DNA from: Eledone cirrhosa
Taxonomy: Eukaryota
Reading direction: 5' to 3'
Length of the DNA stretch: 64,000 bases
Assembly: GCA_964016885.1 (NCBI GenBank)
Contig: OZ024743.1
Coordinates: 58,156,001-58,220,000 of the forward strand
Under the pieces are notes generated by a model. That model ran no database searches. It was not told the DNA's origin and saw only the letters and a program-made list of their open reading frames with translations. Below are positions 4,147 to 64,000 of the stretch, piece by piece (the first letter of the stretch is position 1; every line of letters begins with the position of its first letter). The position numbers and the translations under genes were made by a program.

Positions 4147-4150
<4 letters not shown>
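3490..4150 (+). mobile_element. PLE-type 3'UTR/pseudo-LTR remnant with the 3' half of a hammerhead
   Basis: GAAA-CGGC-ttgagctct-GCCG-TC at 4030-4052. The terminal ~120 bp match 16771-16950 and 41443-41622, and the element ends in (TA)n. Confidence 0.55.
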
Positions 4151-4229
<79 letters not shown>

Positions 4230-4760
4230 GTAGGAGATGAGTTTTATTGTAGAACAATAAAAATATGCATATATCGGATAAGTAGCACTCAGCAGTTTAT
4301 TGAACTGGAGTATATATCAGAAGAAATTAAAGGATGGTTAAACAAGTTCCATATATTTTATTATGGGCATTTCAAAAACAAATATCATCCTGGGACGATA
4401 GTTGGGTTCTCATCAGATAAAATAAGGTAACATGATATTTGCCCTCTCACCGCTTGAGACTGCTGGATTTGAAAACAGTCGAGAATATATAGTTTTCTCG
4501 TCTGTGTAAATGAGGTGATTAATCTCATTTGCATATGAAGCTGCATAAGTTGGCTCAACTTATAATAGAAAAGAAATAAGATTTCGCATCAAGCATAGCT
4601 TTATACAAATATGTATAGAAATTTCGTATTTGTAAAGAAACGCGGTTTTAGGAAACCGTAGTTATGCAAACACCGGGTCTAACGCCCTGTGGTGGTGTCC
4701 AGCAGAAGCAAGGGGGACAACCATCGACACTAATGTTTCTGGAAATGTTCAGGAAAGAGT

Positions 4761-4802
4761 GAGCTGTACTGATGAAGGGTGATACCCAGAAACTTTAGTG
4801 TC
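4761..4802 (+). ncRNA. type I hammerhead core A (its stem-I partner is displaced to 5127-5134)
   Basis: gagctgta-CTGATGA-a-gggt(gat)accc-a-GAAA-ctttagtg-TC. Confidence 0.75.
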
Positions 4803-5126
4803 GACGGTTGTCCCCCATGCTTCTGCTGGACACCACCACAGGGCGTTAGCCCCGGTATTTGCATAGCTACGGCTTCCTAAATCCGTGTTTCTTTACAAAT
4901 ACGAAATTTCTATACATATTTGTATAAAGCTATGCTTGAAGCGAAATCTTATTTCTATTCAATTATAAGTTGAGCCAACTTATGCAGCTTCATATGCAAA
5001 TGAGATTAATCATTTGAGATTTACACAGACGAGAAAACTATATATTCTCGACTGTTTTCAAGTCCAGTAGTCGGAAGCGGTGGGAGAGACCGTCCTGAGG
5101 AAGGCCAGTCAAGCCTGAAATGCTTA
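4803..5126 (+). ncRNA. 324-nt retrozyme-like monomer; its hammerhead is completed only on circularisation or tandem repetition
   Basis: Starts gacggt and ends accgtc-CTGAGGA-aggc(cagtcaa)gcct-GAAA-tgct-TA. The two ends pair extensively (gacggt/accgtc, gcttc/gaagc, tgctggac/gtccagta). Confidence 0.65.
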
Positions 5127-5518
5127 TGCTGTTCTGTTTACATGCCAACACAAGAGCAGAATGAAGGGTTCATTCTACTGACGTGGCTTTAAAAATGAGG
5201 CTTGTTTGCATAATTGCAAACGAATCGAATGTTATTATTAATATTTCGAAAAACTCAGATTACATTTAATTATATACAACAAGGACGATTGGTTAGTCCT
5301 TCATTGCGTTTATTGTTTGGTGACGCGCGTTTCGCCACTATTAGATCAAGGTTCGATCTGTATCGATCTGACCTGACTCTGTAATCCGCGGTTCGTCAGA
5401 CCCTTTGTAATGGTTACAAGGGGTCTGACGACCTATATACACTGGTCATAGACACCCACACACGCACACATACCCCCCCCCCCCCCCACACACAGACACA
5501 CACACACCCACACACACC

Positions 5519-18681: not shown

Positions 18682-20098
18682 ACTTTGAATAACTTTGAAA
18701 TGTTTTGGCCAGTATTGGCCCAGGCCATGTCTAACTTAATAGCACCACCTGGCGAAATCTTTCAATTCAGGATTTGGGCACCATGGCCCATTCGAGAAGA
18801 GAATTACTGTTTGCGGAGACATATCCGGGTGTGGGTGGTTTGTCCGGGATTACTTGGAGGAATTTGTCCAAAGACTTCTTGAATTTTGTGTGGTCAGTTT
18901 CTGTTTTGACGTGTCCTGGTGTGATGTTGAAGAGAGCAGGGCCGAATGAGGTGAAATAATTGTGCCGTATTGTTGTTATGAGTTGCGATTTAGATTTTTG
19001 AATGGGACGGATAGCACGGGGCCCAAGCCTTGGGTGTATCTTGAAGGCGATGCCAACATCATTTGGGCAGTGATGATGGAACATTTTCCACATCATGCAG
19101 ATAATATAACGCTCGCGGCGACGTTGGAGTGAGTAAAGTTTCAGGTTTTCTAGTCGACCCCAGTAGTCAAGGTCTGACATGCCATCTATCTTTTTCGTGA
19201 TTGCCCTTTGAGGAGCTTCAAGTTTCATGATGCTTTGTTTCGTGTGGGGAGACCACAGTGGACAACAGTATTCAAGGTGTGGTCGGGCAAAAGTAGAGAA
19301 GAGAAGGATAATGGTGTGGGAATCTCTCGACTGGAAGGTTCTGAGGATCCAGGAACACATTCTGCGGGCCATGTCTACTTTGCTGCTTATATGCGTGGCC
19401 CAGCTTATGTTGCTGTCCACGGTTACTCCCAAGTCTCTGATGTTGTTAGATGCCACGAGAGTTTCCCCGGAGGGAAGGGAGTACGGGAGTTTCAGAGCAT
19501 CCTCTTTTACAAAGTGGATCAGTTCGAATTTGTCTTCGTTCAGTAATATGTTGTTCTTTTCCGCCCATTGGGTAACAGCCAGTAGGTCTGACTGAAGGCT
19601 TATCCGGTCATCCACGCCATTGATGACCTTTTGGAGCTTGGAATCATCAGCGAAAATTTTAATGTTGCTGTGTTTGATGATGTCAGTGATGTCATTAATA
19701 TAGATGATGAAGAGAAGTGGGCCCAACACAGTGCCTTGTGGGACCCCACTACTGACTTTGGCTGGGCTGGATTTGACTCCTTCAACTACAACATGTTGGG
19801 TTCTATTTGACAGGAAGCTCTTGATCCACTGCAGCAGCTTTCCAGTGACACCAATATTGGACAGCTTTCTCAGTAGAATGTTATGATCAACCCTGTCAAA
19901 GGCCTTGCTGAAATCAAGGTAGATAACATCAGTGTTGGAACCCTCTCCCAAGGCTCTCAAAATGTCATCAAAGTGGTGCAGTAGTTGCGTCGGGCAATCC
20001 CTTCCATTACGGAATCCATGCTGGTTGGAGTTCAGCATATTGTTACTCTCAAGGAAGTGGGTCATTCGCGATCTCACCACTCTCTCAAATACCTTAAT
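18680..20098 (-). mobile_element. 5'-truncated CR1/L2-group LINE inserted in (TA)n
   Basis: RT ORF followed by a short 3'UTR with a hairpin and a tandem ttcaaagtta terminus. Confidence 0.9.
18767..20080 (-). CDS. reverse transcriptase and C-terminal region of a CR1-group LINE (N-terminally truncated)
   Basis: [53 protein letters not shown] and [11 protein letters not shown] motifs. Confidence 0.9.
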
Positions 20099-20099
20099 G

Positions 20100-20132
<33 letters not shown>

Positions 20133-20161
20133 TGTATGAATATATATATATATCTATGTAT

Positions 20162-20203
<42 letters not shown>

Positions 20204-20430
20204 GTATGAATATATATATATATCTATGTATGTATATATATATATCTATGTATATATATGTGTTGACAGCAACTGAGAAGAGATATATTTATGGGTTGAT
20301 AAGGTACTTACAAACATTAGTGTGGTATAGAAGTAAGAAGGCTAGAATGTACTTAATGATTGTATTTCTGTGGTCGTTCGTGCAGTATAGTGGGTATCCT
20401 AAGTTGAAAGCTAAGTTATGTCGGTTCGAT

Positions 20431-21093
20431 TCACGGAGGCTTAAATCTTGCGAATTTAGTGGCGATCGTGTGTCTGCAGAAGATTGATCTTTCTAACATG
20501 TTGTTGAGTAGCCTTTTTACATTTCTAAGGATATATAGTAATTCTAGATCACATAGCCTACAGTGGGACATACCGGTACTGTAGGTCTTAGCAGCCGACA
20601 ACCTCGACCAGTTGATACTGTAGTTGGTGTTATTGTCCTTAAGTTCCCAGATTTTTTTGGCGAGGGTTGCAGAACCCATAAGTGCACGATTTTTCATCGA
20701 GTGTCTGTGCACATACCATCTTTTTTTAAAAGTACCCGCGGTGGATCCAATGTAATGCCAAGTGGAGTTGTCTGAGTTGAGCGTACACATGTACACTAGG
20801 ATCGAATCAAGCCATCTATTCGCCAATGGGCACCTATCCGGTAGGTGACAGTTACAGTTTGAGGTGTTATTTCGTGCAGCTTCCACACTGCTGTTTATTA
20901 CACTGCTATAAGTGGGTTGTGATTCATGCTCGTTGGGGTTTTGCTGCTGCGTGCTTGTATGCGCTTGCAGTTGTGATACTGTGATGTGTTTATGTTTATA
21001 ATTTGGTGCTATGCTGCGCATAGGTAGGGCGGATTCCCTAGAGGTATTTCTATGGTTGATCACGTGAATGTTAAAAATTGATGATGGGTACAT
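20431..21093 (-). pseudogene. GIY-YIG endonuclease remnant of a Penelope-like element (Hydra-clade-type motifs)
   Basis: CNCHLPDRC (CxCx5C), LVY...YIGST..FKKR...H, IWELK, W, CRLC, LLN and CRH motifs. Confidence 0.8.
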
Positions 21094-21754
21094 ACATATT
21101 TGTACACAAGTATTCCCATACGGCAGGGCCTAATGGATTCCCTTTGCAGTACGTACAATCTGGACACTCACACACACCTTGGTGTTATGACAATACTATA
21201 CATCATTTCACCTCTTTTATTATTAATGTTTTTGATGTTCTTTTAAGAGAATCGTTTTTGCAAACTACTGAAAATATCGATGTACACCATTTTTACCAGT
21301 ATCACAAAAATACTGGCCCATCACCCCCCCCCCCCACACACACACACACATACACACGCGTACACTAACATACAAACAGACATACACACACACACACACA
21401 CTTCTCCGTATAAGACAAGAGTTGAAAAATATCTTTCAACATGTTAAAATATCCCCCACACACGTACACACACATTCCTACTGACCGATTTTATTCCCTC
21501 TACCACGAACCACTCTGCTACACACACACACACACACATATTTGTCTTAATAGACACCTGAACTGTTGTCCTTTGAACATGACTGCAACTCACACACACA
21601 TTCCTACTGACCATTATCACAACGATGAACCTCTTTACTACACACACACACACACACACACACACATATTTGTCTTAGACATATTTTTCAGTGACTTCTC
21701 AACATGACTGCAACTCAATCAGGCGAAAAGGGACACTCTTCGGCAAACCTACAT

Positions 21755-22204: not shown

Positions 22205-22665
22205 ATCATGTAGTGAATATTACCATCTTATGCAAACAAGCCTCATTTTTAAAGCCATGTCAGTAGAATAAGCACCTCATTCTTGCTCTTGTGTTGGCAT
22301 GTAAATAGAACTGCAGACACTGTTCACTGTTCATCTGTCAACTGTCAGTGCTAAAGAAAATAGTTGATATTTTCTAAAATATACAGTGACTGATCGGCCT
22401 GATTTGCATATTAGCCGACTGGTTGATCAGTCAGATCTGCATATTAGTAGATTCACTGATCAGCCAGTTGGCAGGTGAACAGTGAACTCTACTGATGACG
22501 GGTGATACCCAGAAACATTAGTGTCTGCAGTTCTGTTTACATGCCAAAACAAGAGCAATAATGAGGGGTTCATTCTACTGACATGGCTTTAACAATGAGG
22601 GTTATTTGCATAATTGCAAACGAATCGAATATTATTATTCGAAAAACTCAGATTACATTTATTGT
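22205..22665 (+). mobile_element. fold-back PLE-terminus element with octamer-containing subrepeats
   Basis: 22225-22320 is the reverse complement of 22520-22612. Same family as 58620-59105 and 4443-5275. Confidence 0.75.
22484..22533 (+). ncRNA. minimal type I hammerhead ribozyme
   Basis: gaactcta-CTGATGA-c-gggt(gat)accc-a-GAAA-cattagtg-TC/tgcagttc, with one stem I mismatch. Confidence 0.75.
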
Positions 22666-22741
22666 ATTCAGTCATGTAGAGCGAACATTTAAAAAAACTT
22701 ATATATATATATATATATATATATTTGTATATATACATATA

Positions 22742-27114: not shown

Positions 27115-27303
27115 TTAATCTAGATGAGATTCTACAGGACTAGAACTGTTTCATTCTTTAGAAATCATCAGGAATCCTGATGATTTCTAAAGAATGAAAC
27201 AGTTCTAGTCCTGTAGAATCTCATCTATATTAAAACTTTTATACTCTGCAATGTATTGAGTACCTTACTTACTGTGGTTACCTCCGATTCAACCCGGAAT
27301 AAC

Positions 27304-40135: not shown

Positions 40136-40234
40136 GCTTCTACAGGACTAGTACTGTTTCATTCAGATGAAATCTTCAGGAAGCTGCTTCCTGAAGATTT
40201 CATCTGAATGAAACAGTACTAGTCCTGTAGAAGC
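40136..40234. ncRNA. two back-to-back intact hammerheads (- strand 40136-40184; + strand 40186-40234) in palindrome 40126-40244
   Basis: gcttc-CTGAAGA-t-ttca(tc)tgaa-t-GAAA-cag(tactagtc)ctg-TA/gaagc on both strands. Confidence 0.85.
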
Positions 40235-41826: not shown

Positions 41827-43889
41827 TATAAAAGAGGTTTGATTGGTGTTATGGACTCTACCAACCAAACATTCAAGAACAAAGAGTAAAGAGCAAAAGC
41901 AGGGGACAATAAGTCTAATTTAGGTGCGGGAGGGTGGGGTGTGGGTCCTTGTTTACTAGCTGTGGTCATATTCATTCCCGGGAGTCGAGTGGTTAGTGGA
42001 ACCATAGATGGGGTGGCGTTGATAGTAGGGTGCAGAGGGTGTGCAGAGGCTACACACACACAAAGGGCATACAATATATATATAACGCAGGAGAAAGTAC
42101 ATGAGGTAATTAGAAATGGAAAAAGAGTAATAATAATAATCTATAATTAATAATGTATAATAAGGCATTGGGAAGATTACACTATAATAAGGTATAAGAG
42201 TAAGAATAAAATAAAATATAAGGAGGATAAAAATGAAAATAAAAATTAAAAAAAAAATATATAAAAAATATATAGAGAATATATAAAAAATATAAGCAAG
42301 TATCAGAAAGGGAAAAACACAATGTAAAAAAACAGATTTTGTTAAATAAAAATATTATAAATATGGGGGGAGTAAACGGGAAAGAGAAATATAATCATAA
42401 TGCGATTAGTTGAGAGAATATAAGATGATCATAAGTGTGTCAAGTTTATACATCTTAATAATAAAGAATATGTATACTAGAGTTACACATCTTTCAATGC
42501 ACTTGCAAGTCCAACCCATAGGGCATAGTCCATCGCTCATCTGTGCGGTCGTGTGTGTTTGTGTTCGACCTCACAACAGATCCACAAGTTCGTATATTTC
42601 AATGCAAATAGAATTCTATTTGTGCTTACCCGGTCATTGACGGAGCATCCAATATTCCTAGTTGATTGCTGACCCAATATGTGTGTAGTGTTATTTTGGT
42701 CGCATAAATCAGTCACTTGGTTCTATATTATGGAGTATGGTTTTCTAGTCTTCGATACAGTATCAGTGGTTGTATTTCTCAAAATCACAAGGATCACAGT
42801 ACTCCGGTTTTGTTTGATTATATGGTATCTAACTATGTTGTCGGTGCTTGGATTCAAATCTATTGCCCAGAACGTAGGACTTTGGTGTTGATTGAACATT
42901 AACGAGGCAGAGTGAAATCGCATCTGTGTTAAATAACGGTACGCAAGGAAATTCTTCGTCTTCGTTTCATCCGGGTTTAGCAGTCACGTGCAAGAACTGC
43001 TACGTAGTAACTGTGGGGGCAAGCGGTCAAGATAGCAACTGACCGAAAATTCTCCTGGGAATTCGGACAGGCATGACAGGTACATTTAGGTCACCAGTTT
43101 CTTCGTGTGTACGTGTGTCCGATACACACAGACACATATTTATATGTATTTCAACGGGAAAAAAATTCAATTGACGCCCTTATTGATATTATATCTGATA
43201 TTCCTAGATCTCTGTTGTTCCGATGCCCATGTTGTGATGTTTTGGTCGTGTTTACCAGTCACTGTGTTTTGCCATGAGCTTGGAGTGTGATGTTTTGGTC
43301 ATCAATATTCCGGCAACCGCATTCTTCTCTTATATTGTGGAAAGTGGTTGTCTGGTCTTCAGTATACATTTGGGTCAGCAGGAGGGGAGGTGGTTCTCAG
43401 TTTCCACTGCGACAATACATATATGTTATTTTACATATCGTGCTCCTCTCAAAGAAGAGTATTATAGGAGGAATTCATGCTAAACACCACATATAGAGAT
43501 GACTTCTACAGAAAAAAATTCTCTCTCCGAGAGTTCCCTCCAGGTAACCTTTCGGCGAAACATAGCGAAATACATAACATATTATATATAGTGTGTTATT
43601 ACATGAGTGGATGTTCACTTGTATCATACAAGAAAGGCAATAGGGAATAGGGAGGAAGAAGCCCTGCTTTTATGGTGGAGGTTGGGGTGAACTAGTATAT
43701 GAATGCACACCCGCAGACGTTCCCGCATCTGTCTAAGTGTACACATGGACAGCGACACACACACTCAAACACGCATATATGTATATACTCATGCACACAC
43801 ACACGCACACGCATACACACGCACAGATGATAGAGGCTGGGGTGTATTGTTATATATGGCCATGCGCGCAGACATACACACACTCATAC

Positions 43890-44747
<858 letters not shown>

Positions 44748-45017
44748 TAAAACATGTCTATAGAATCACAAGATAAAATATAAACTATTTCCTCTCCCAA
44801 TTAGCATAATTAACTATATAAGAAATCGAATAGACCAGGCTATACGAATGAGGCTTCTATGAAGGAATCTCCGACAAATAACCGAAAGTAGCGCTTTGCG
44901 TCGGCCGTAGCGGAATATTTATCGAATATTTCGACAGCGTAATCGCCTAGATATAGTCAACTAAACAGAATTAGGTTTAAAATAAACTAGGAGAAAATAG
45001 AATACATTTATATATAC

Positions 45018-45124
<107 letters not shown>

Positions 45125-45774
45125 GATAGATAGATAGATAGATATATTATATATATATATAGATAGATAGATATATTATATATATATATAGATAGATAGA
45201 TATATTATATATATATATATAGATAGATATATTATATATATATATAGATAGATATATTATATATATATATAGATAGATATATTATATATATATATATATA
45301 TAGATAGATATATAGATATATTATATATATATATCTATATTATAGAGCCCTGGTTTTCTGTTGAGCTCTGCTGATGATTGAAATTCTAACCGTGACCATC
45401 TCCACTGAAAGTTTTCATGAAATAGTCTTTTAAGACTATACAGAGCATTTGATGTTATTCCAAATTGAAGGATAAGTGTTTCAAACTTTATTTTATCATG
45501 AGTTAAAGGTCTATAGATGTTCCCTGGATTTTACTAAATTCTGTGGATGAATTTATATCCTGATTCTCTTTTGAGATGAGTTTGAGTTATTTTTCCTAAA
45601 TCTTTCGTTAACTACTTTTCCCATCTTGACGTTATAGTCGCATATATGTTATAGAATGCCGTTAGCTTCTTGCTAAAACAATCTCTATACCTCTCATTTA
45701 TATTATATATATATATATATAGATAGATAGATATATATATTATATATATATATATATATATAGATAGATAGATA

Positions 45775-46126: not shown

Positions 46127-50580
<4,454 letters not shown>

Positions 50581-51044: not shown

Positions 51045-51486
51045 ACGATATTAAACAAATGGAAACTATATTTATAAAACCATATTTATTTCATTATATA
51101 TATTTCAGGGATATCATATTAAAAATATGGTATGCCTTCCTCAGACAAAATACAATATATAAGCCGTTTTATAAATAAATTTGACATACCTTAAAATAAT
51201 GCAACTTCCATTTAAAAAGTTGATTTTAAATGGAAGTTGCATTATTTTAAGGTATGTCAAATTTATTTATAAAACGGCTTATATATTGTATTTTGTCTGA
51301 GGAAGGCATACAATATTTTTAATATGATATCCCTGAAATATATATAATGAAATAAATATGGTTTTATAAATATAGTTTCCATTTGTTTAATATCGTAAAC
51401 CTACTCCAAATCTGTTGAGTGCTTTTATATCAGTTATAAAATATTTACTCGTTGTAACCCAACAATTTTAAATGAAACTTTTGCAT
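51045..51486. mobile_element. ~350-bp near-perfect palindrome (51045-51396) with mirrored hammerheads (- 51088-51151; + 51290-51353) plus tail
   Basis: attttgt-CTGAGGA-[agg cata...tatg..cct]-GAAA-tatata-TA/atgaaat, with G-U pairs in stem I. Confidence 0.75.
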
Positions 51487-58622: not shown

Positions 58623-59110
58623 GTGACTGATCGGCCTGATTTGCATGTTAGCAGACTGGCTGATCAGTCAGATCTGCATATTAGCAGATCCACTGATCAG
58701 CCAGATTTGCATATCAGCAGACTGGCCAGTCAGTTTCCTGTATACTAGCGATAAATGGCCGGCTTTGCCAAATTCAAATAAAAAAGATCAGTGGATCTAC
58801 TAAGATGCAGATCTGACTGATCAGCCAGTCTGCTAACATACAAATCAGGCCGATCAGCCACTGTGTATTTTTGAAAATAGCATATATTTTCACTAGCTCT
58901 GACAGTTTGGCAGGTGAACAGGGAGCTGTACTGATGAAGGGTGATACCCAGAAACATTAGTGTCTGCAGTTCTGTTCGCATCCCAACACAAGAGCAAGAA
59001 TGAAGTGTTCATTCTACTGACATGGCTATAAAATTGAGGCTTGTTTGCATAATTGCAAACGAATGGAATGTTATTATTAACATTCGAAAAACTCAGATTA
59101 CATTTATTTT
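58620..59110 (+). mobile_element. PLE-terminus element with inverted octamer subrepeat block and hammerhead
   Basis: 58618-58698 is inverted at 58785-58866; the tail matches 22470-22660. Confidence 0.75.
58923..58972 (+). ncRNA. minimal type I hammerhead ribozyme (best-preserved copy of this family)
   Basis: gagctgta-CTGATGA-a-gggt(gat)accc-a-GAAA-cattagtg-TC/tgcagttc; the 8-bp stem I extends further with gaaca/tgttc. Confidence 0.85.
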
Positions 59111-59155
59111 ATAAACAAATAACGAAACGAAATTATTATTTTTAACTTAATTATT

Positions 59156-60070: not shown

Positions 60071-60673
60071 GGAAAAAATGAAACGAAATTTAATTTCTCA
60101 CTCTTAGTACGGCTGTTACTTAAATATAAGTATGTATGCGTACATACATATATGTATACAGACGTACAGTTTTATGTATATATATACATACATGCACACA
60201 TATATATATGTACGTATGCATTCACCGAACATTTATTATGATGCTCGGTGTGTTTGTAAACAAACATCCCGTATTAAGCCGCACAGTGTCTAGCAACCAT
60301 CGTTGCTCATTTGTTCAACACTGACAAAGGAACGCTGTACTTGTTTCAAGCTTATTAGGCTGCTCATCCGTTAATATGCATAAGGAAAGTATATACTTTC
60401 AGACGTTCAATCATCTGGCAGGAAGGTATACGTTGCTGACGATAGCTACTAAGCTTGAAACTAGTACAGCGTTCCTTTTTCAGTGTTGAACAAATGAGCA
60501 ACGATGGTTGCTAGACACTGTGCGGCTTAATACGGGATGGTTGTTTACAAACACACCGAGCATTATAATAAATGTTCGGTGAATGCATACGTACATATAT
60601 ATATGTGTGCATGTATGTATATATATACATACTACTGTACGTCTGTATACATATATGTATGTACGCATACATA

Positions 60674-60732: not shown

Positions 60733-61785
60733 ATACTTTGGGAGGGTCATGTTGCCAATAAGAAACACACGCACCAGTTGCTTTCACTTCAATTTATTAT
60801 AATAAATTTATAATAAATTTATAAATTTCTGGTTGGTTGGTTGGTTCCACAACCAGATAGTTGTTTATATATTGTCTTAGTTCTTTCGTCACACACTCTG
60901 TGACCTCTTCAGTGACTCGGGATTCCTTTCTTTGTTTCTATGCCTCTCCTTTGTTCTGTCCTACGCCATTTTGTTTCTGTGTGTGTGTTGTGTGCTCAGT
61001 CTGCGCATGCGCCACATCCGGGTGTCTGTGTGTGTTTATGTTCATTTATTTATTTGTTTATTTACATGTTACTGGTTGGTTGTTTGTTCTATGTGTGTGT
61101 GTGTTTTCATTTTGTCCTTAATTGTAAGTTGTGATGTTGCTGTTCCACTCATATTTTCTATTTAATTTTGGTTGTAATTCTTTTATGTTTATTGCCTCTG
61201 TAATTTGTCTAAACATTGCGTCTTTTCTGTGTGTAGATTCTATTTTTATTTCTATGTTCTCTAATTTACCCTTGTGTTCTATTTTAGCATGTTGGTAGAG
61301 TACAGATGATTCTTTACTATCTTGAAGGTCTCGCCAGTGTTCATTTATCCGTTCCCCTACACTACGAGCTGTCTCACCTATGTACACTATATTTTTGTCT
61401 CTACATTGTCCTTCAGTACATCTTATGGTATACACTACATTTCTAGTTTTACAGTTAATATGGGGGCTTATTTTACAGGTTATACATTTCTTATCTATAC
61501 ATGAGGGTCTTTGAAAAGGGTATGTCTTGCTAATAAGTGTTTTTACGGAGGTACCTGGTCTTTCTACTATCTTAATATTGAGTTTATGTTTATCTAGGGC
61601 CCTTCTAAATTTGTAAGCTAATTCACCTCTAGGGGTTGTATCGATGAACATTACACTCTGGTATTTATTGCTATCATACCATGAGTTTATTCTATTAGCC
61701 TTGTTCCTAGTTCTTTCTATTCTATTCCAAAATTTGCTTCTATACAATGGGCAGGTTCCATTTATGTCATTATTTACCATTTTTT
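60728..61785 (-). mobile_element. inverted 3' copy of the Nematis-type PLE: complete GIY-YIG endonuclease plus pseudo-LTR
   Basis: CIDKKCITC...CKTRNVVYTIRC...YIGETARSVGERINEH...H...RQITEAINI...LNRKYEW. 61377-61785 is the reverse complement of 63591-64000. Confidence 0.9.
60873..60917 (-). ncRNA. minimal hammerhead in the PLE pseudo-LTR (slightly decayed)
   Basis: gtca-CTGAAGA-g-gtcaca(gagtg)tgtgac-GAAA-gaac-TA/agac. Confidence 0.65.
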
Positions 61786-64000
61786 GGTAAATAGAAATTT
61801 TGGGGTGGAAATAGAAATAGAAACAACACAACTAACAATAACAATAGCACTAGTACACATAAAGCAGCAGCCTGGAACTCTACGTTTTATAATCCCTCCG
61901 ATAAATCGTTCGACCTGCGACGAGTCCACGCCACGACTTTACCATTTAACAAACGCACGCAATTGCCGTCGCAGGTCGATGAACAAATAGAAGCACAATT
62001 TAGTATAGCTAGATCCGAACTTAGAAATATTATAGAACAATATAGCAAGAAGCATAATAGAATGGAGGCCCAGCAACTGGTAGAAAAATCTGCAAATGGC
62101 TTGCGTAAGCTCATGCAGCGCTCACGTAATGGAGAGATAGCATGCTTTCCAACAGACAAGTCTGGCAGAATGTCGGTTGACAGCCTACCAAACTACATCC
62201 AGGCAATGCAACCCCACATCACTAACACAAGATAGGTAACACCACAGGAGTATGAGGATAGAGAAAAAGCCCTTAATGCCCATATGGTGATGTGGACGAA
62301 TATAATGCAGCCTAACAAAAGTACTGCCAACAACTTCCAGGCCTGGAACAATGACGTGCCGGTGTTGTATGGGCTTCGAAAAGACCATAAAACGAGCAGT
62401 GACCCTGTCGCGGGACAGCCAACATGGCCAGTCTGTGGAGCTAACATTGCTAGTAACTACAGACTGTCCTACTTCCTCTCCCTGATCATACGCCCCATCA
62501 TTGAAATGTCCCCAGATGTATGTGACAGCACGGAGGACCTCCTCAGCAGAATCGGCGTGAGTAACCGATCTAGGGACCTAACAAACTGCATAATAGGCAG
62601 TATGGATGTTGTGTCCCTGTATCCATCTATTGACGTGGATTTTGCTGTGGAGAAATGCGTAGAAATGATCAGTGAGAGCAATGTTGAGTTCCGTGGGATT
62701 GATACCAGTGAGCTGGGACGCCTACTTAAACTTACCTATAGTAATAATTACCTAGACACATATGACCTTAGCAACCTGTGCCCTACAAGACCAGCAAGAG
62801 GCAGACCACCTACCATTACCTCAATGGCCAAGAAAACCTACACAGATAGATGGAACGGGTGGACCAGAGCCATACGGACACGCGAAAACCACGATGAACT
62901 GAAGAAAATGATTGCACATGCGGTAGGGGCCAGCATAAAACTAACCCTTAAGGAACATATGTTCAAATTTAATGGAAAAACATATGCCCAAGAGCAAGGA
63001 GCAGCCATTGGTGTTAGCATTGCAGGCGACATAGCTAACTTATTCATGGTATGGTGGGACAGTAGACTTAAACTTAAACTTACAGAACAATTAGAAGACC
63101 CTTTAACCCTGATAATGTACTCCCGCTACGTTGATGATATAAACATCGTAGTTAAGACACCCCCACTAGAGAACAGTCAGGAACTAGAGAAAAACACAAT
63201 GGAAAGCATCCAGCAAATAGCAAACTCCATCCACCAGAGCATTAGAGTTACTATAGACTACCCAAGTATACACCCCAACCATCGATTACCTGTACTAGAC
63301 ACAGAGCTCTGGTTAGATACCATTAACAACAAAAAACAAATCCTCCATTCCCATTATGCCAAACCCATGACTTCCAAACATCTGATCCACCGAAACTCGG
63401 CCGTTTCGGACCATACCAAAATCAACATACTGATTGCGGATTTGGTACGGGTGATGAGAAACGTGTCCCGCATGTGCAACCCCGAAGAACTAGAGAGACA
63501 CATACAACACTTCATTCACCGTATGCAGTTCTCTGGCTACAATCAGAGAGATAAAATCAGAGTGTATAGAGGAGCCAGAACCAAATGGGAAAAAATGGTA
63601 AATAATGACATAAATGGGACCTGCCCCTTGTATAGAAGCAAATTTTGGAATAGAATAGAAAGAACTAGGAACAAGGCTAATAGAATAAACTCATGGTATG
63701 ATAGCAATAAATACCAGAGTGTAATGTTCATCGATACAACCCCTAGAGGTGAATTAGCTTACACATTTAGAAGGGCCCTAAATAAACATAAACTCAATAT
63801 TAAGATAGTAGAAAGACCAGGTACCTCCGTAAAAACACTTATTAGCAAGACATACCCTTTTCAAAGACCCTCATGTATAGATAAGAAATGTATAACCTGT
63901 AAAATAAGCCCCCATATTAACTGTAAAACTAGAAATGTACTGTATAGCATAAGATGTACTGAAGGACAATGTAGAGACAAAAATATAGTGTACATAGGTT
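61786..64000 (+). pseudogene. Penelope-like (Nematis-type) RT plus start of GIY-YIG endonuclease, 5'-truncated, running off the right edge
   Basis: Manual translation gives PTDKSG, LYGLRKDHK, PVCG, GSMDVVSLYPSI, YAQEQGAAIG, RYVDDINI, DYPS..LPVLD and YIG. In-frame TAG stops at 61792-61794 and 62233-62235, then open to the edge. Confidence 0.9.

Follow-up and report, generated by a model that had tools for sequence, protein, structure and literature searches.

Exact joints between hammerhead retrozyme families at predicted cleavage sites in the genome of Eledone cirrhosa

Hammerhead cleavage leaves one RNA end with a 2',3'-cyclic phosphate (the 3' end) and the other with a 5'-OH. The closest described RNAs with such ends are the metazoan non-LTR retrozymes (Cervera and de la Pena 2020, PMC7229834; review PMC7761336; Li, Clavereau and Pollet 2026, bioRxiv 10.64898/2026.07.22.740005), whose monomers, in the available text of PMC7229834, are circularised by RtcB to >80% against 3% by self-ligation and, in a second comparison, to ~30% against 1%, with probable linear dimers formed as well. 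A second precedent is the U6/LINE-1 chimeric pseudogene, in which, ahead of retrotransposition, RtcB is described as ligating the cyclic-phosphate end of U6 to an unrelated RNA that carries a 5'-OH (Moldovan et al. 2019, PMC6789731), a route that the consulted part of a review (PMC13247085) also places ahead of LINE-1 copying; these chimeras were first explained by template switching (PMC6789731), which is the rival to be weighed here too. Finally, a Penelope-like element (PLE) protein is described as priming internally at two sites and on both strands of AT-rich DNA (PMC11167929). RtcB-ligated U6/LINE-1 chimeras are thus known as a precedent, and what appears to be new here is the occurrence of joints between different families at predicted hammerhead cleavage sites.

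We analysed a 64-kb stretch of DNA, called the window, to which all positions refer unless a further locus of the same 3.0-Gb genome (L-numbers) is named; family letters (A to I) are labels of the present analysis. The locus at issue, in which families A and B are joined (the A/B locus), is real and unusual, and following it up revealed a small set of loci with exact hybrid joints. From left to right it consists of (TA)n, a minus-strand piece of family C, an inverted arm, a 12-base seam, the end of A, a B monomer and the start of A; the features are given below with two sibling copies of A from elsewhere in the window.

4150 to 4228, no strand: (TA)n to the left of the family C piece, from the sequence; family 3' ends abut (TA)n genome-wide
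4229 to 4438, minus strand: 3' portion of a hammerhead element of family C, with its core at 4416-4410, a cleavage triplet that ends at 4362 and the long form of the 3' end at 4229
4439 to 4443, minus strand: joint of B position 284 to family C, with ~3 bases of microhomology and away from any cleavage site (read by eye)
4444 to 4725, minus strand: inverted arm, positions 1-284 of family B (93% identity with the direct arm)
4726 to 4742, minus strand: inverted arm, final 17 bases of A including the cleavage triplet; second A-to-B joint at 4726/4725
4743 to 4754, no strand: seam of 12 bases between the arms, from the sequence
4755 to 4802, plus strand: final 48 bases of the family A monomer (46/48 bases equal to the family majority)
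4803 to 5126, plus strand: complete monomer of retrozyme family B, bounded at both ends by its cleavage site
5127 to 5272, plus strand: family A, starting at base +1 and running to the shorter of its two preferred 3' ends (~+145), with 134/142 bases equal to the family majority
22478 to 22670, plus strand: sibling family A copy, own joint intact
58880 to 59118, plus strand: sibling family A copy, own joint intact

The original prediction described an A core ending at 4802 whose downstream strand resumes at 5127, as opposed to siblings that carry their own joint, and this description holds; 5127-5279 is 90% identical to the sibling A copy at 58965-59118. The intervening sequence is, as proposed, a B unit cut from cleavage site to cleavage site, spanning positions 1-322 of 322 of the reference monomer (L004) and carrying its own core at 5095. 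Both the A-to-B and the B-to-A joints are blunt, with 0 bases of microhomology and no target duplication, in agreement with the earlier failure to see a target-site duplication. The parts of the A hammerhead are the stem I 5' strand (4761-4768), core CUGAUGA (4769-4775), stem II (4776-4788), GAAA (4789-4792) and cleavage triplet GUC (4800-4802), and those of the B monomer are the 3' and 5' strands of stem I (4803-4809 and 5088-5094), core CUGAGGA (5095-5101), stem II (5102-5116), GAAA (5117-5120) and UA (5125-5126). Loop 3 of B reads TGCT in the window copy, one mutation away from the family palindrome TGCA. The ends of the insert had been expected to fold back into a rod; they do pair into a long terminal stem, but the fold that this stem closes (-104 kcal/mol, z -6.2; 0/100 shuffles equally stable) is branched rather than a simple rod. 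The locus has no ORF of 150 aa.

As anticipated, the inverted arm (4444-4742) crosses the A-to-B joint, giving the second copy of that joint. The arm retains the family spelling of A stem III, which is mutated in the direct arm. Because the two arms, at 93% identity, share two transversions that are rare elsewhere (in 1 and 0 of 28 other copies), the joint is no assembly error and the arms derive from one source. The same shared substitutions bear out the claim that the chimera is older than the inversion, and two copies of one template is a better reading of the arms than a later inversion. The earlier reading was incomplete at both edges, having missed the family C piece joined to the inverted arm on its outer side and a family D element at the right end. 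The C piece (202/210 bases equal to the family majority) may be a product of the same event as its neighbours or a later insertion. The D element, on the minus strand at 5280-5450 (core 5399, cleavage triplet ending at 5322), represents a fourth hammerhead family with a long stem II, a palindromic helix III and a short inverted piece at ~5420-5435, and its 3' end adjoins the A tail.

Ribozymes were called from core motifs, cognate stem I pairing and a palindromic helix III. Rfam models can miss minimal hammerhead variants. Rfam returned no hammerhead in 4300-5460 (0/10 matches, up to E 10) and none among the best 150 of 173 matches in the whole window. In both A (4769/4789/4800) and B (5095/5117/5124), CUGAnGA, GAAA and NUH follow one another in type I order, which is conserved in family copies. 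The stem I 5' strand of each family pairs best with its own +1 strand (6/6 families), the native pairing reaching -11.0 kcal/mol in A and -10.6 kcal/mol in B, and pairing at the hybrid joints is weak (-6.0 and -1.9 kcal/mol). Helix III is palindromic and capable of dimer formation (B with B, -6.7 kcal/mol; A with A, -8.8 kcal/mol). These motifs fit the minimal type I hammerheads of PLEs and retrozymes, as far as these are set out in the available text of PMC4209133. Further predicted hammerheads occur in the window, namely family E at 60426-60480, an inverted pair of family F at 51144/51297 and one unclassified motif at 45371, together with palindromic hammerhead-like motifs at 27150-27200 and 40160-40215 that have a core on both strands and stems that misfit the type I fold. 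Family G (for example at 1420-1530 of L120) combines the U3-A8 variant of the core with a stable stem III, which closes a ~50-base loop; the U3-A8 core recurs in family I, where one-sided changes preserve stem I.

Genome-wide, B is a tandem family with a unit of 321-324 nt and one predicted hammerhead per unit in partial head-to-tail arrays. Its independent occurrence in tandem had been set beforehand as a check on the original prediction, and tandem arrays with intact own joints were found: 116 matches from 40 scored of 2347 candidates mostly comprise one full unit with partial neighbours. A is likewise a tandem family (unit 430-440 nt, one predicted minimal type I hammerhead; 1291 first-look candidates, 40 scored). 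Own joints numbered 49 for A and 54 for B in targeted loci, and a random 1 Mb contained 5 site-spanning matches for B and 3 for A. By sequence criteria, both families appear to be metazoan non-LTR retrozymes, likely moved by PLEs. Copies of each family end against (TA)n at two preferred 3' positions (A ~145/178, B ~115/160, G 98/135, I ~140/165, C 51/138), and two-armed insertions with classifiable ends combine a long with a short 3' end in 44/54 cases (p 2e-6), a count that leaves out the 37/91 two-armed insertions with an end outside the classes. Such pairs of ends point to one template per two-armed insertion, so that both arms were probably copied, as a rule, from one RNA. The two internal 3' ends, inverted arms, AT-rich target and lack of a clear duplication are all features of PLE-type insertion. 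Equal arm lengths, as expected if the two arms were made in lockstep, fail at other loci.

This anatomy bears on an origin of the locus at the DNA level, whether by target-primed insertion or recombination of B into A, from an ancestral two-core form, or through assembly error. Nested insertions are common at these TA-rich loci, and contigs of 4 public sequencing runs contain no bridging of the joint, which is uninformative. B copies, however, normally end at ~+115 or +160 against (TA)n rather than at the cleavage site, the joints have neither duplication nor shared sequence, and both arms, 7% diverged, hold the joint. Furthermore, the A/B joints are unique to this locus and both families keep their own joints elsewhere; since A-to-B and B-to-A joints are confined to this locus among the matches found, the two-core form is derived and not ancestral, as the original prediction required. 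We consider a DNA-level origin extremely improbable. An amplified A/B subfamily was also rejected: the 9 matches to the A-to-B pattern were 2 from this locus and 7 mutated A copies, and the 2 matches to the B-to-A pattern were 1 from this locus and 1 mutated B copy.

As to an autonomous PLE, the pieces scanned held just PLE-like fragments, both below the Pfam cut-off and neither of them tied to A or B, with a GIY-YIG match at window 61121-61831 (E 4e-4) and a reverse transcriptase (RT) match in L103 (E 0.002); 3/5 of the pieces scanned had neither RT nor GIY-YIG. The first fragment spans 61118-61831 on the minus strand, and a second PLE-like GIY-YIG fragment, with no Pfam match, lies at 20431-21129, also minus. 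At L137, L140 and L142, G +1 is fused directly to the interior of a PLE-like ORF (at L137 by the same joint on both inverted arms), and family G is possibly that PLE's terminal repeat. At ~1516 of L102/L103, the B cleavage end is joined, on two inverted arms, to the antisense start of a PLE-like ORF. The window also holds LINE-type RT ORFs, classed by eye, at 46805-50266, 43850-44800, 18767-20245 and 1062-2392 (one frame of 1153 aa). A SINE-like repeat of ~150 bases often lies inside the AT-rich tails of hammerhead elements (~8960, 9760, 28700, L109, L111, L112, L228), and a large tandem array with a period of ~3 kb carries family I copies (G000:C10 51.300-51.320 Mb, L224).

Our best explanation, held with moderate confidence on sequence grounds, is that the locus is a DNA copy of a hybrid A plus B RNA, the self-cleaved ends of which would have been joined by an RtcB-type cellular ligase and pasted at a TA-rich site by a PLE reverse transcriptase. 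The predicted hammerheads would cut A and B RNAs, leaving 2',3'-cyclic phosphate and 5'-OH ends, and a ligase that normally closes a monomer on itself would occasionally join ends of different molecules. Joining the A end to the B start and the B end to the A start would give a hybrid circle of ~750 nt (the alternative being a linear three-piece RNA), and such a circle would account for the presence of both reciprocal joints at one locus. A PLE enzyme would then prime inside the RNA at one of the two preferred sites of A and read across the B-to-A and then the A-to-B joint, while a second PLE enzyme would copy the same template into the inverted arm. At the hybrid joints no ordinary hammerhead is predicted to re-form, which would protect the hybrid RNA from being cut again.

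Recurrence of such joints was assessed by fixing each core up to its cleavage triplet and tabulating the downstream sequence, with the window's own joints excluded. Non-native sequence followed the B core in 6 matches at 5 loci, the A core at 7 loci, the I core in at least 7 matches (at least 6 loci) among 100 listed of 109, and the G core at 4 loci. Among the matches listed, 7 of the 22 non-native loci continue at base +1 of another family: A-to-H at L111, A-to-G at L112, B-to-G at L106 and I-to-G at L216, L217, L220 and L221. The corresponding chance is p 7e-13 at 1-in-300 each, or p 5e-7 if the four I-to-G loci are counted as one event (4/19), and the expected enrichment of chimeric breakpoints at cleavage sites is thereby upheld. 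Of the other 15 loci, 3 had own-family sequence with an added A, 8 had own-family sequence that was trimmed, internal or altered by a small indel, 3 ran into other repeats and 1 into the interior of family E. A near-whole I monomer precedes G +1 at L220 (I 6-321 of 321) and L217 (I 4-321), the same design as at the A/B locus; the I-to-G loci show no evident shared private changes of the kind a single founder would leave. L106, L112 and L217 are one-armed, the second arm of L111 is interrupted by another repeat, and the second arm of L221 passes from G to I imprecisely. Cross-family hybrids are real but rare: 0/46 cores were hybrid in the random 1 Mb (100 stretches of 10 kb). Candidates rejected on inspection were an F-to-C joint in L224, where stem I is cognate, and apparent B-to-A and G-to-C joints in L101 and L124, respectively, which are loose-match artefacts.

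Fixing instead the +1 side, no foreign core was found before B +1 besides the A/B locus (12 matches), and none before A +1 among 100 listed of 129 matches (48 loci read), which were mostly inversion seams. For G, 23 of 100 listed matches (543 in total) had non-native upstream sequence; read by eye among the matches listed, 22/23 (18/19 loci) break within 2 bases of +1 (p 4e-13), none breaks at -6 to -16, and a foreign core lies upstream at 2 loci. About a fifth of well-conserved family G copies start at +1. This sharp pile-up is shown for well-conserved G copies and not for all families, as copy starts in the random 1 Mb fell within 3 bases of +1 in only 1/23 cases, with no enrichment, although 17/22 lay downstream rather than upstream of the cleavage site (p 0.008). 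From the copy-end pile-ups at +1 and the hybrid joints at the predicted site, we infer that the predicted ribozymes cut in vivo. G is the downstream partner in 6/8 exact hybrid loci, perhaps because it is efficiently cut and not seen in tandem, which would leave its 5'-OH free.

The breaks at G +1 are also what would be expected if no hybrid RNA ever existed and the PLE reverse transcriptase jumped end to end, running off the 5'-OH end of cleaved A, onto the free 3' end of a cleaved B monomer and, once B was copied, back to the 3' end of the A RNA still bound to it, with the second arm made either on pieces splinted by the first cDNA or by copying that cDNA. This reading, second arm included, is quite plausible, though we lean against it. 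It gains from the 129 A matches with non-native sequence just upstream of +1, from extra bases at 6 own-family A joints that resemble untemplated addition, and from its reach, one mechanism also covering the fusion of +1 to the interior of PLE ORFs, the trimming of ends and the inverted arms; an engineered R2 enzyme, moreover, appears able to capture RNA ends with a 3'-phosphate or cyclic phosphate (available text of PMC12140624). Against it, the main joint has no added or trimmed base in any of the 8 exact hybrid loci (A/B locus included), three loci would require both arms to choose the same rare foreign partner, the A/B locus would require two successive jumps, the second back to A, and the parts of the literature consulted contain no demonstration of such jumping for a PLE enzyme.

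Ligation followed by PLE copying draws its support from the seamless character of the joints, none of the 6 cross-family types having added bases or any microhomology, and a covalent template is favoured by the three loci (A/B, L220 and L216) where both inverted arms cross the same exact hybrid joint. Several findings count against it. At least 6 own-family A joints have 1-3 extra bases at the cleavage site (L108, L110, L113, L187, L201, L203) and several B joints are trimmed, which indicates that reverse transcriptase or another imprecise process crosses cleavage sites; the extra bases may have been left where reverse transcriptase passed over a break, or may derive from tailed ends. Numerous copies end at +1 with no further sequence of a joint, suggesting that unligated templates are common. 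The second arm of L221 is imprecise, L225 joins a G end to the interior of family E, and a G core followed by a foreign +1, the reciprocal G-to-I joint included, was seen in 0/4 cases. As for the single template, the left arm of the A/B locus ends in family C and not at the long site of A, so that a later insertion of C or a template switch must be assumed.

The original prediction spoke of ribozyme-directed joining. It was right that the ends are set at predicted cleavage sites; the joiner, however, is likelier to have been a protein ligase or reverse transcriptase than a ribozyme, because the non-cognate stems pair poorly. In the ribozyme-catalysed version, cleaved A and B would dock through stem III in the manner of homodimers, each retaining its own stem I, and reversal of cleavage would make both joints at once. 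Exactly the two reciprocal joints of the A/B locus are thereby predicted, stem I of A and stem I of B are each able to span the insert and close (-5.2 and -9.7 kcal/mol, respectively), and ~4-5 pairs can form between the GAAA arm of B and the cleavage-site arm of A. This cross pairing nevertheless amounts to just -1.4 kcal/mol against -6.7 (B with B) and -8.8 kcal/mol (A with A), the A-to-H, A-to-G, B-to-G and I-to-G joints lack such pairing by eye, G has its own stable stem III, and self-ligation of retrozyme monomers is given as 1-3% in vitro in the available text of PMC7229834. We regard such an exchange as very unlikely.

Under either main model, ligation or jumping, exact cross-family joints would be a genomic record of ribozymes cutting retrotransposition templates in the germ line. 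As sequence tags they cannot arise unless the ends of different molecules were joined, and the choice between a covalent circle and a reverse-transcriptase jump in the spread of retrozymes becomes directly testable through them. If ligation is true, the U6/L1 route extends to ribozyme-defined ends, and homology-free modular recombination is open to small catalytic RNAs. A broader and more doubtful suggestion is that any mobile RNA with hammerhead ends can be coupled to any other, related or not, with hybrid circles or chains being copied, I-to-G hybrids spreading in uncleavable form and retrozyme and PLE families recombining as cassettes at their cleavage sites; its boldest sub-case, that paired hammerheads carry out the reciprocal exchange themselves, we would hardly expect to hold.

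Compared with known systems, A and B resemble metazoan non-LTR retrozymes, as these are characterised in the available text of the sources, in being non-coding tandem units within the 170-450 nt range with one type I hammerhead each, low GC and a stable fold, as well as in their likely mobilisation by PLEs and in monomer ends that would be RtcB substrates. The described ligation, in contrast, is of a monomer to itself or to its own kind. In the main texts consulted, mostly open-access, no account of joints between families at hammerhead cleavage sites came to light, nor is there any in the available portions of PMC7229834 and PMC7761336 or of the main text of bioRxiv 10.64898/2026.07.22.740005. 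With the U6/LINE-1 chimeras, as reported in the consulted parts of PMC6789731 and PMC13247085, the locus shares a blunt joint of the cyclic-phosphate-to-5'-OH type between unrelated RNAs, here read from DNA; the joints are blunt with 0 microhomology in 6/6 types, as in RtcB-type chimeras, the end chemistry following from predicted cleavage. Unlike those chimeras, the A/B locus has both ends set by predicted ribozymes, both partners mobile, a likely PLE mobiliser, both reciprocal joints and a possible hybrid circle, with ligation proposed from sequence. The insertions resemble those of PLEs, as far as they are covered in the available text of PMC11167929 and of Craig et al. 2021 (PMC8557442), in their partial tandems, inverted 5'-truncated arms, tail of 30-40 bases at one end, AT-rich or (TA)n targets and lack of a clear duplication, and the ribozymes resemble PLE hammerheads (Cervera and de la Pena 2014, PMC4209133, available text) in the short palindromic helix III and the U3-A8 core variant; unlike PLEs, A and B consist of non-coding units. 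Frangieh et al. 2024 (PMC11167929), in the text available, report no RNA reads ending at the hammerhead site and find cleavage unnecessary in vitro, and against this background the cross-family joints would indicate, from genomic sequence, that templates are indeed cut by such ribozymes in vivo.
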